A DNA stretch of 64,000 nucleotides from Eledone cirrhosa (lineage: Eukaryota). Below, piece by piece: positions 32,641 through 41,413 of the stretch (the first letter of the stretch is position 1; every line of letters begins with the position of its first letter). Where the stretch lies: NCBI GenBank assembly GCA_964016885.1, contig CAXHJY010001363.1:1-64000 (forward strand), in the 5' to 3' direction. Below the pieces are notes generated by a model. It saw only the letters and a list, made by a program, of their open reading frames with translations, ran no database searches and had not been told where the DNA came from. A program made the position numbers and the translations under genes.

Positions 32641-33177
32641 TGAGTTTATGTTGGTTGTATACCAACACCTCAGTATGCAGGCTGGAGCACTCGACGAAGT
32701 GCGCAGGTTGGTTTGGTTACTTCGGAGTAGTGTAAAATAAAGTTAAATAAAAGTCAAATGATTAAAATTTAGCTTCGTTTATTACTGCTATATATATTTC
32801 AGTGACAGCCATCTTTGGCTGTGACCTCTTCAGGCAGTTTGAATTAGTGTGGTATAGACAAGCATATATGTTGTTTAGGTGTATGATATTGTCAATACTC
32901 TGATATGCCCAGTTCCTGGTTGGGTTGTTATTTCACTGAGGAACTGGAGTCAGATATGACTCCAGTTCCCCAGTGAACTAACAACCTAACCAGGAACTGG
33001 GCATATCAGAGTATTGACAAAATTATACACCTCAACAACATATGTACTAGTCTATACCACACTAATTCAGACTGCCTGAAGAGGTCACAGCCAAAGATGG
33101 CTGTCACTGAAATATATATAGCAGTAATAAACGAAGCTAAATTTTAATCATTTGACTTTTTATTTAACTTTATTTTA
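32641..33177 (-). mobile_element. Fold-back family S: ~220-bp arms each with a hammerhead, ~92-bp tail on the left
   Basis: Arms 32733-32952 / 32957-33177. HHR actgc-CTGAAGA(33076)-ggtcacagcc aaagat ggctgtcact-GAAA-TATATATA-gcagt. Confidence 0.9.
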
Positions 33178-34197
33178 TATATATATATATAAATATATAT
33201 ATATATATATATATATATATATATATTTCGAAGTATATAAAAGCTAATAGAAGTAATATATTCGATCGATCTATTGTCAATGTACCCTCAACAACAAACC
33301 CACTAAGCAGTTATTACAAAAAAACAAAAAATATATATATATTTCGAAGTAGTTTACATCAGATTCTTTACATATGTCCCACCATTGCAAGCAGGGAAAA
33401 GCGGACGTAAAATGATGATGATGATGATGATGATATAAAAACAGATTAAAGTGCAAGCAAAGAACCACTGCTTTCACCCTTACGAGCCCTCTTCGGATTT
33501 TAGTCTTCACATTTATTATTACTATATATATATATATATAATGTGTGTGTGTGTGTGTTATAATGCATTTAATGAAATATTGCTCAATCCGGTTATTGTA
33601 AAAGAATCGACAAATTTAGTTTTCTGTAGGAGGGTCCCTGGATGAAAGTGCCATCTATGTTGGTCACGCAGATCTGAAACTTTTGGTACTTGTACACTCT
33701 TTTCATCTATTAATTAAATAAATATTATATAACAAGTAGTATGTTATTTGATGTCTGCGACAATTCAAAATGGATGATAGATTTGAGAATATATTGAAGG
33801 TAACGAAGATGTTGGTGTGTCACCTGTTATTTTACTTACCATTATTTATTTATCAAAATACTGCAGAGATAACCCGCTAGCATTTGTCAATATTTCAAAT
33901 GGCCATCAGAGAGATATCTCAGCAAATTTAAAAGATTTGTTTAACATATACTCACTATCTGTTATCAAAGAATGCCCCCCCCCCCCCCCCCCGCTCCGGA
34001 AGTTTCTTGACGCCTGAAGAAATCTGACCGATCAACCTACGTCGTGAAATAAAGAAGTTTATTGTGATTTGTCGTGGAGAAATTGTGATCCAAAGCAAGG
34101 GCTGATATAATTCGTAATGGATTTAACGTATCGTCAGTACACTTTTGTTGTGTCTTCTGTTGGCTAAATGTGATATACTTAAACTTAGAAGCTCCTG

Positions 34198-34615
34198 TGT
34201 CTTGAGACACACGAGGCACCCAAAATGCTCCAACAACCATGGTTAGTTGGATCTATCAATACAGCCCACGTCTTGAGACACATGAGGCAGTAAAGTGCTC
34301 CAATGACCATGGTTAGTTGGATCTATCAATACAGCCCACGTCTTGAGACACATGAGGCAGTAAAGTGCTCCAATGACCATGGTTAGTTGGATCTATCAAT
34401 ACATCCCACGTCTTGAGACACATGAGGCAGCCAAAGTGCTCCAATGACCATGGTCAGTTTCATCTATCAATACATCCCACGTCTTGAGACACATGAGGCA
34501 CTAAAGTGCTTCAATGACCACAGTCGGTTACATCTATCAATACATCCCATGTCTTGAGACATATGGGGCAGCCAAAGTGCTCTAATGGCCACGGTCAGTT
34601 GCATCTATCAATATA
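34198..34615. repeat. 70-71 bp minisatellite x6
   Basis: tcttgagaca at 34200, 34271, 34341, 34411, 34482, 34552. Confidence 0.9.
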
Positions 34616-34749
34616 TCAAATGTGATATCCTTGAGTACTTTATGTTAGTGCGACGTTTCCCTTCCTTTACTGTCTTCTGTGTGTGTTGTGTGTGTTGTGA
34701 ATGTTGTGGAGCTAGGGAATAGAAATGATAGTATTTTTGTCTTTTCTGT

Positions 34750-35350
34750 ATGTATATGGTATGTTTAAGTTGTTGAATGTAATGGTTTGTTGTATTTAGT
34801 GTTCCCTGGCCTTTAGTAGGTGTTTACTTTCCTGGTGACTGATATAGAATTGAAGTAGTTGTGGAAATATGTCGAGAGAATGGTAAAACATTTGAATATA
34901 ATATCATCTAGGTATGAGGTTCTGTTTCGAGGGTCTGTGTGTGTGTGTGTGTGAAACATCGTGTAGGTAGAGGCTAAAATGTATGGGGGGGGGGGAATAT
35001 GTCCTTATGGACATATTTCATATTTCATTACAGAAATTGCAAAATCTAGATATGATGCTTCAGTATTTCACATAGACATGACAGCCTCAGAAGTAATTTG
35101 ACATATTTTTGCTGATGTCGATGATAATTTGAATGGCATATATGAGCTAGTTTGTTACTACAGAAGAGGTCAGGTAATTCTTGTGTGAAAGTAATGTGTT
35201 GGTTGAGTGTTGTGATCTGAATCCCTATTGGGATCTGGAAAGCATAATGCATGGAGTTAGTAATATCAAGGACGTATCTTTCTAAAATGTTTGAAAGTGT
35301 GTTTAGGAGTGTTTGTGTAATGCTACTTCCATTGCACACTTTTGTGAGAA
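34750..35350 (-). mobile_element. Heavily decayed RT remnant, probably PLE-like
   Basis: Minus-strand YLDDIIF at ~34893-34913, followed by a PF(L)DI-like segment; many frameshifts. Confidence 0.4.
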
Positions 35351-39299: not shown

Positions 39300-39590
39300 T
39301 AAGCATCAGTCTTCCTCTTGGTCCAGGACGGCAGGATAGAGAAGAAATTGCTCCGGGGGGCCGCGAGAGAGACGCCCTGGAACAGCTGCTCCACTTCGCG
39401 AGGCTCCCACTTGCGGGTAACCAACTCTGCTCTGATAGCGGTGAGCAAGCGTGTGGCCCGGGAAACCAAGAACGGCGGAAGGAAGTCGCCACTGTTAATG
39501 GCTCAATTATAAACCTTTCAGAAAGCGGCCGATACTTGGACCGTTTTCTCTCTTCGGTCTGGCGGGTAGCGAAGCCTGAGCTGGTAACAT
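39300..39590 (-). mobile_element. CRE-like RLE LINE 3' fragment (frameshifted)
   Basis: EERKRSKYRPLSERFIIEPL, then in another frame EPREVEQLFQGVSLAAPRSNFFSIL. Confidence 0.65.
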
Positions 39591-40411
39591 TCACTTTAAA
39601 AGGCACATGATAATTTGGACGTGTGACTGCTAACTCTGGCAGATCGAATAACCGTGTAGAAGTTTGATTACATCGTTGCTGTTCTTGTTGTTTAGCCTTA
39701 AGTCAACACAGACCAAGGTGACCTGTGATTAAAGGCCTCGTGTCCTTTTAAGAGATATTGAGTACTACAATATCTATTAGATACATTTTTATCTATGACG
39801 GAAACGTGCAATTTTAGTAATATTTTGGTGATATTTCCAGAAGTTAGAGCAACAATATACAGGTTTGCTTTTATTGTTGATAGAGGTGATGGTCTTGTTG
39901 TTTTGTTTTTATTGCTATTGTTACTAGTGTTGCTGTTGCTATAGTCAAAGCTGCTATTTAGCATACAGGTATTGATTTTTGTATCGTCAGCGCCTCTCAC
40001 AGTAGTACTGCTATCGATGAAAACTCTTTCTCCGCCGAAAAGAGGCGTTTCCTCTATTAAAAACAGAGTACTCGCCAACACTGTCGCTGTCTTACAAAGG
40101 ATTATACCTTCTCTATTGTATTAACCTCACACAACACCGCTTGTCTAGTCTGTTAACATTATCTTCGCTGTGAATGTCAGAATAGTCTATCTAATCGGCC
40201 AGCCATTAATTATAAAGGACAATGTCTTCTTAAATTAGGAGATATTCGGAAATATTCTCTCCTCGCGTATATTGTCAAAACCCTAACAAAACATTCACAG
40301 AAAAATACTAAATTTAGTCAGCTAAATATTCAAAAATTATTCCGCTTTTCTGAACCTTGCAATATACGTCCTCTCAGGTCAATATGTAATCATAATAATT
40401 TCTGCCATTTC

Positions 40412-40830
40412 GAGCGGTGGAATGGTAGAATTGGCAAATAGTCGAATGGAATGCCACTGTAGTATTTATTGTGGCTCTTTACACTCTGAGTTCGAATTTT
40501 GCCACGGTCAAGTTTACCTTTCAATGCTTCCGAGATCGATAAATAAAGTACCAGTCAAGTGATAGGTTTGATTTAATCAGTTTGCCCTTCCAGGCCTTCT
40601 GCTTGAATTAGAAATCAATAATTTCTATTATAAGCAGAAGAACGAATTGGCAGACTTGTTAGAACGTCGGATATTAGGCTTTGCAGTACTCGCTCCGGTT
40701 CTCTGCTCTCAAATTCCGTCGAGGTCAACTTTATCTTTCATCAATTCGAGATCAATAAAAAAAGTATCAGTCTAGTATTGGGGCGATTCTTCCTCTATAT
40801 TTCTTTCTCACTTCCCCCTCCCCCCCCCCC
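40412..40830 (+). mobile_element. Two diverged SINE copies
   Basis: Degenerate Meta-like cores. Confidence 0.7.
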
Positions 40831-40874
40831 CTCTCTCTCCTCTCTCTCTCTCTCTATATATATATATATATATA

Positions 40875-41413
40875 TAAAATAAAGTTAAATAAAAAGTCAA
40901 ATGTTTAAAATTTAGCTTCGTTTATTACTGCTATATATATTTCAGTGACAGCCATCTTTGGCTGTGACCTCTTCAGGCAGTCTGAATTAGTGTGGTATAG
41001 ACAAGTACATGTGTTGTTGAGGTGTATGATATTGTCAATACTCTGATATGCCCAGTTCCTGGTTGGGTTGTTGTTTCACTGAGGAACTGGAATGATATAT
41101 GATTCCAGTTCCTCAGTGAAACAACAACCCAAAAGGAACTGGGCATATCAGAGTATTGACAAAATTATACACCTCAACAACATATGTACTTGTCTATACC
41201 ACACTAATTCAGACTGCCTGAAGAGGTCACAGCCAAAGATGGCTGTCACTGAAATATATATAGCAGTAATAAACGAAGCTAAATTTTAAACATTTGACTC
41301 TTTATTTATCTTTATTTTACATTACTCCGAAGTAACAAAACCAACCTGCGCACTTCGTCGAGTGCTCCAGCCTGCATACTGAGGTGTTGGTATACAACCA
41401 ACATATACTCAAA
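40875..41413 (+). mobile_element. Fold-back family S, second copy, tail on the right
   Basis: Arms 40875-41093 / 41102-41319; HHR at 41213-41267 and its mirror. Confidence 0.9.

Follow-up and report, generated by a model that had tools for sequence, protein, structure and literature searches.

Palindromic insertions, probably of Penelope-like type, in an Eledone cirrhosa contig, and the opposite phase of their arm mismatches

Insertions of Penelope-like elements (PLEs) typically consist of pseudo-long terminal repeats inverted head to head across a palindromic junction, with an optional tail on one side (PMC3846280, Arkhipova et al. 2013; PMC8557442, Craig et al. 2021). As far as the accessible parts of these and of the other papers cited here describe them, Naiad PLEs are biased towards (TA)n targets and Neptune elements towards microsatellites (PMC3846280; PMC8557442), Naiads lack a canonical hammerhead ribozyme, the tail is ascribed to endonuclease-mediated resolution of an intermediate, and the insertions, which form palindromes in (TA)n, are difficult to assemble (PMC8557442). 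The minimal hammerheads of PLEs have a long helix II, a 5-bp helix I and a palindromic loop III, and occur as opposite-strand pairs 100-700 bp apart (PMC4209133, Cervera and De la Pena 2014). With an anole PLE studied in vitro, both target strands are extended and reverse transcription starts at two neighbouring positions that delimit the tail, and the protein is predicted to form a dimer (PMC11167929). Recently active Penelope families have been described in Octopus vulgaris (PMC13282606). The mechanism by which PLEs generate inverted copies and tails is not yet settled (PMC8557442, PMC11167929). Here we analyze two copies, A and B, of a short palindromic repeat family in a stretch of 64,000 nucleotides from Eledone cirrhosa (assembly GCA_964016885.1, contig CAXHJY010001363.1, positions 1 to 64,000; hereafter, the window). 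We consider both copies very probably to be non-autonomous insertions of PLE type. The structure has already been described, and this family is one more example of it; being young, abundant and short, and apparently carrying standing haplotypes, the family offers material, given one good assembly, for counting how often the two arms of an insertion stem from a single template, from two, or from a hairpin that was resolved.

Anatomy, targets and hammerhead motifs of the two copies

BLAST finds two copies of the family within the window, A (32641-33177) and B (40875-41413), which are 94.8% identical across 538 columns when aligned tail to tail. Each is laid out as a (TA)n run, an inverted arm, an arm, a one-sided tail and a second (TA)n run (Table 1), so that an inverted copy adjoins the 5' side and a head-to-head palindrome results in A and B alike, as in PLE insertions. 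The arms measure 222-223 nt each, and the palindrome is much stronger than chance would give (DNA fold z = -54, with none of 100 shuffles equally good). A preliminary description of the locus had reported a common fold-back point for the two copies, with tails on opposite sides, and both observations hold: the centre falls at 32954|32955 in A and at 41097|41098 in B, which is one and the same alignment column, and the tail is on the left in A (92 nt) and on the right in B (94 nt). The free arm of the palindrome ends exactly at the arm/tail junction, which fits the two adjacent start sites of reverse transcription that bound the tail of the anole element. The targets are of the AT-rich microsatellite kind, with (TA)n on all four flanks of A and B, and in contigs assembled from public reads the loose ends beyond the tail are likewise (TA)n.

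A minimal type I hammerhead motif, a feature of PLE repeats, was recognized by motif scan and folding in all four arms, with self-cleavage as a prediction. It is composed of a 5-bp stem I, the box CUGAAGA, a long stem II, the box GAAA and a palindromic AUAU stem/loop III (fold z -2.8 for 41213..41267), and the paired hammerheads of one element lie on opposite strands, 242 bp apart. In the window, G-U forms the first pair of stem II (position 10.1-11.1); 41250C, found in ~42% of reads, would make it the canonical G-C, and none of the read variants listed falls in the catalytic boxes. Taken together, a hammerhead in each arm and the (TA)n setting make the copies likely PLE stubs. The preliminary description had included neither the hammerheads nor the (TA)n targets, nor the three copy-specific columns treated below.

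The comparison with endonuclease-positive PLE insertions thus extends to the head-to-head inverted copy, the palindromic junction, the one-sided tail, the microsatellite target and the hammerhead within the repeat, while the window elements differ in having no open reading frame (ORF) and in the length of the tail (92-94 nt, versus 30-40 nt in the accessible text of PMC8557442); the likeness is one of structure. With the type I hammerheads of metazoan PLEs, as far as PMC4209133 describes them, they share the CUGAnGA and GAAA boxes, the long helix II, the 5-bp helix I, the palindromic helix/loop III and the opposite-strand pairing, and they differ in the G-U pair at 10.1-11.1 and in an activity that is so far a prediction from sequence. 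Three other assignments were rejected. Non-LTR retrozymes (10.64898/2026.07.22.740005, in its accessible part) are also non-coding, PLE-related and equipped with a type I hammerhead, but they consist of head-to-tail tandem units, whereas the elements here are head-to-head palindromes with a tail, their arms are inverted and neither locus has a tandem hammerhead unit. The Naiad clade of PLEs was discarded on account of the hammerhead motif, and a miniature inverted-repeat or foldback DNA transposon on account of the unique tail of 92-94 nt outside one arm in both copies, so that there are no inverted repeats at both termini. Since Naiads are described as lacking a canonical hammerhead, and a hammerhead is combined here with a (TA)n bias, the autonomous partner would more likely be of Neptune type than a Naiad.

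Table 1. Coordinates of copies A and B, of their flanks and of further elements of the same layout in the window
Feature	Position	Strand	Basis or remark
(TA)n run beside A tail	32506..32640	.	window sequence
Copy A one-sided tail, 92 nt	32641..32732	-	unpaired, outside palindrome; matches B tail
Copy A arm joined to tail (sense strand: -), with common family letters corresponding to 41163T, 41166C, 41175A, 41212A	32733..32954	-	arm alignment and reads
Hammerhead motif, A tail arm	32784..32838	-	motif scan
Copy A free (inverted) arm, 41163A/41166T type	32955..33177	+	arm alignment
Hammerhead motif, A free arm	33071..33125	+	motif scan, fold
(TA)n run beside A free arm	33176..33226	.	window sequence
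(TA)n run beside B free arm	40855..40876	.	window sequence
Copy B free (inverted) arm; 41163T/41166C patch, rest B-tail-like	40875..41097	-	arm alignment
Hammerhead motif, B free arm	40927..40981	-	motif scan
Copy B tail-linked arm, 41163A/41166T type	41098..41319	+	arm alignment
Minimal type I hammerhead motif, B tail arm	41213..41267	+	motif scan, fold, dimer co-fold
Copy B one-sided tail, 94 nt; three small hairpins predicted	41320..41413	+	BLAST, fold
(TA)n run beside B tail	41414..41433	.	window sequence
Other-family elements of same layout	13489-13643, 27535-27884, 28095-28278, 28325-28717, 28797-28962, 38588-38776		
Other-family elements of same layout, continued	43600-43780, 54305-54535, 54974-55111, 58668-58874, 58906-59113		

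Arm mismatches and their phase

In an alignment of the four arms (223 columns), 21 columns vary. Sixteen of them vary in a single arm, three (41103, 41122 and 41290) are copy-specific, both arms of one copy agreeing and the copies differing, none follows the tail, and two have the flip phase, in which the tail arm of A equals the free arm of B and the free arm of A equals the tail arm of B. The flip columns lie, on the plus strand, at 32885/32888, 33021/33024, 41028/41031 and 41163/41166; only 3 nt apart, they were counted as one patch. This confirms the same two-letter plus-strand mismatch that had been noted earlier in both copies, with a phase relative to the tail that is opposite in the two.

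From this pattern the preliminary description had concluded that the interior of the palindrome inverts relative to the tail, as in flip and flop isomers of hairpin replicons. The palindrome, at least of a sub-lineage, would then be the replicating unit, and a nuclease of the element would resolve a hairpin cDNA at the arm/tail junction in the manner of parvoviruses. Parvoviruses such as the adeno-associated virus (AAV) carry terminal palindromes in flip and flop forms. Like these, the element is an imperfect palindrome whose orientation towards a unique flank takes two forms, and it differs from them as an integrated non-coding repeat with no Rep gene, with a family centre that is not fixed (see below) and with copies that are not exact isomers. 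Such a mechanism, if true, would link retrotransposition to hairpin resolution, and the tail of PLEs would find an explanation in a hairpin transfer like that of parvoviruses, here within a retroelement. The presence of both phases in two of two copies, the free arm terminating exactly at the arm/tail junction, the ascription of PLE tails to endonuclease-mediated resolution (PMC8557442, in its accessible part) and the commonness of both mismatch letters, which isomers require, speak for it. A clean flip of A, however, still differs from B at five sites (41175, 41212, 41103, 41122 and 41290), and two copies with one patch are too little to carry the claim. Literature searches, over a library with few subscription papers and without supplements, listed no report of flip and flop forms among PLE palindromes.

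The letters of the patch are widespread in the family. Four public runs were mapped to the tail arm and tail of B (41088-41416), and the figures given here come from two runs of restriction-site associated DNA (RAD) sequencing, whose allele shares are biased for the reasons given below. 41163T was found in 589/1203 and 454/876 reads (~50%) and 41166C in 280/1035 and 205/729 reads (~27%); these shares are unequal and the letters belong to a wider haplotype, neither of which favours flip and flop isomers. In run X4, 41163T, 41166C, 41175A, 41202T and 41212A all occur at one contig depth, 51.1, and a second contig with a depth of 24.4 is almost identical to the tail arm of B, which suggests two standing haplotypes in the family. 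Four of the five X4 haplotype letters are present in the tail arm of A, and only the inner two (41163T and 41166C) in the free arm of B. A rough draw model, which assumes independent draws and takes its allele shares from the biased reads, gives the flip pattern a probability of 0.02-0.12; with one patch and two letters that are both common in the family, the flip phase is therefore not far beyond chance. All of this concerns two phased copies, as the read length of 150 nt, against a distance of at least 154 nt from tail to site, does not allow reads to link the two.

Two further explanations bear on how the arms came to differ. Each arm may have been copied from a different RNA, the two RNAs being joined via a protein dimer or via the stem III palindrome of the hammerhead, so that arms could differ from birth and either could carry the tail; this is one form of the explanation favoured below and is not exclusive of it. 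In agreement with it, the arms of A differ at four common variable sites that match the two standing haplotypes, two hammerheads are predicted to co-fold as a dimer through AUAU (-42.8 versus 2 x -15.7 kcal/mol), and the anole PLE protein, in the accessible part of its description, is predicted to be dimeric and extends both strands (PMC11167929). In B, however, both arms carry 41122C, a letter found in at most 5-6% of reads, and the chance of this with independent draws is about 0.003; close to the centre, at least, one arm of B would thus be a copy of the other, or both would be copies of one template. Arms in two sister families (see below) also share copy-specific letters, as one template would give, and we regard two templates as improbable. 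The second explanation is an error of assembly or polishing, in which reads from the two neighbours, 95% identical, or from further copies became mixed and the patch ended up on the wrong arm. Palindromes in (TA)n are indeed reported as hard to assemble (PMC8557442, as above), but the 16 single-arm letters persist, several of them rare in the family, where majority polishing would tend to erase them, and both haplotypes were found in independent runs, which makes such an artefact most unlikely.

The fold-back centre in public reads and the origin of the pattern

In the two RAD runs, 903 reads (496 + 407) leave the arm as loose ends at 41097, and their consensus ends in one non-inverted motif, with an agreement of ~0.5. 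The same upstream motif was found in 15 contigs of run X1 and in one of run X4, and does not occur in the window with up to three mismatches allowed. The strand-change joints listed comprise nine types in 87 raw reads, of which 38 are symmetric at the centre seen in the window (two variants, with 21 and 17 reads) and 49 lie elsewhere, the others among those listed being 41134, 41233-41238, 41104|41382 and 41232|41254. Reads that cross the window's own centre are rare, with an implied depth of 7-20 and an upper bound of 176-244, versus ~760-1010 just inside the arm. A palindrome fixed in all copies, as a hairpin replicon would have it, is thus not seen in these reads, subject to RAD bias. Ending in AATTC, the upstream motif together with the ATATGA that follows it yields the palindromic hexamer CATATG, at which a cDNA end could plausibly fold back on itself or two cDNA ends could anneal; with such a hexamer at the centre, the same centre can recur without copying of the palindrome as a unit.

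The read data yielded two further observations. Pile-ups at 41206/41209/41285 had been considered as a solo 80-nt hammerhead family, which was rejected because they coincide with AATT sites and represent library ends and chimeras. In run X1, contig depth is ~2x over the hammerhead relative to the tail and drops towards the centre, as expected if each tail had two arms and centres varied; depth is no copy number, and this was given no weight.

In the window, eleven elements made up of a tail and a palindrome and flanked by (TA)n runs were measured, A and B included. In two sister families, all four pair comparisons gave 3-12 copy-specific columns, no flip columns and differing centres, a pattern which, judged from the arm alignments, is that of palindromes built at insertion from one template lineage. 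Free variation of the centre had been named in the preliminary description as contrary to its proposal; the centre is not fixed in the reads, nor in the sister families, and 38 of the 87 listed-joint reads lie at the window's centre. The unfixed centre, the dominance of the non-inverted upstream continuation and the lack of flip columns in the sister families, added to the five residual sites, make flip/flop replication highly unlikely; A and B have ordinary PLE anatomy, and beyond one 4-nt patch in two copies we found no positive support for it.

We favour, with moderate confidence, the view that A and B are separate PLE insertions which folded back at a hot spot, and that their arms later became mosaic via template switching or gene conversion. 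A PLE reverse transcriptase with a GIY-YIG nuclease, acting in trans, would cut (TA)n, and copying of the RNA would start both at the end of the tail and at the boundary of arm and tail. The resulting copies would be joined head to head at the short self-complementary site CATATG, the inverted arm thus forming during insertion at a preferred fold-back point, which would let the same centre recur. Template jumps of the reverse transcriptase, or later gene conversion, may then have put the TC letters on the tail arm of A and on the free arm of B; the donor of a conversion could be any copy of this abundant family, perhaps the left arm of A 8 kb away. The two-letter mismatch would accordingly reflect the mixing of two common subfamily haplotypes.

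Several points weigh against this explanation or against the figures behind it. It requires mixing to have happened twice, at places that overlap. A and B have the same centre type, which is rare in the reads, and they share the tail letter 41330A, for which reads have G in 1398/1424 and 1257/1271 cases (98-99%); the two together hint at a special relation of A and B, or at a different host species, and the reads may come from another species than the window's. RAD reads start at AATT sites, so the library was probably cut there and probably contains chimeras, and the AT variant itself creates an AATT, which biases allele shares and fold-back shares. Hairpin fragments amplify poorly, and here they were probably under-amplified, biasing the fold-back share further. 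Nor are the reads independent copies, with 2-7 start places per joint. As to the PLE assignment, Rfam gave no match at gathering score in the window, hammerhead included, and on 41090-41420 just one chance-level snoRNA match (E 8.2); Pfam gave no family in 6 of the 44 listed window ORFs, those tested, exact-motif scans of metagenome, prokaryote genome and viral contigs gave no match in five of five, and no autonomous PLE partner was seen. A crude six-frame motif scan of the window for reverse transcriptase and GIY-YIG returned two weak matches, both outside the elements.

The shared letter 41330A and a double template switch make a common palindromic progenitor a real rival. A and B would stem from one heteroallelic palindrome copied as a unit, by a read-through transcript or a local hop, and the interior of B would later have been inverted by host template switching, with partial homogenization of the arms. 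One double switch, which exits the tail arm outside 41212 and re-enters between 41166 and 41175, turns the pattern of A into that of B with no residue at the four common variable sites, and the rare centre is common to both copies. Template switching between inverted repeats is known to homogenize arms and to invert spacers without any special replicon, as described, in the part accessible, for short repeats with 7-16 bp arms and 2-5 bp spacers (PMC8604942, Abraham and Hazkani-Covo 2021), compared with arms of 222 bp in the window. On the other side, the fit is weak, as the switch points were fitted to those same four sites, 41103, 41122 and 41290 require separate homogenization, and the tails differ at 41322 and 41406, at each of which both letters are common in the family. 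The flanks, moreover, hold no duplication: in ~2 kb on each side, the two loci have in common only a dispersed short repeat (85%, non-colinear and unrelated to the element), by which a local segmental duplication, an objection raised in the preliminary description, was rejected. We consider the progenitor unlikely, although less so than the other rivals to separate insertions. The claim that the palindrome propagates as a unit accordingly stands halfway, since a shared palindromic ancestor is compatible with 41330A and the one double switch, whereas most reads continue non-inverted past the centre and several other joints occur.

With regard to the tail itself, the majority read letter at 41330 would give a perfect 14-nt palindrome at the tail start (41323-41336), which A and B both break with the same base.

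Other repeats of the window

At least five other families share the layout of (TA)n, a palindrome or arm, a tail of 55-105 nt and (TA)n, and their centres vary among copies of one family; in one such element, at 28325-28717, each strand shows a hammerhead-like motif. More single hammerhead-like motifs lie close to (TA)n runs at 2523 (+) and 57462 (+). A palindrome of 350 bp at 17419-17770 consists of two inverted copies of an abundant short dispersed repeat. Judged by its short dispersed repeat, the window would fit an octopus-type genome. The satellite at 2759-6616 has a 310-bp unit with 99% identity, and its orientation flips at ~5075, with 7.5 units running one way and 5 the other.

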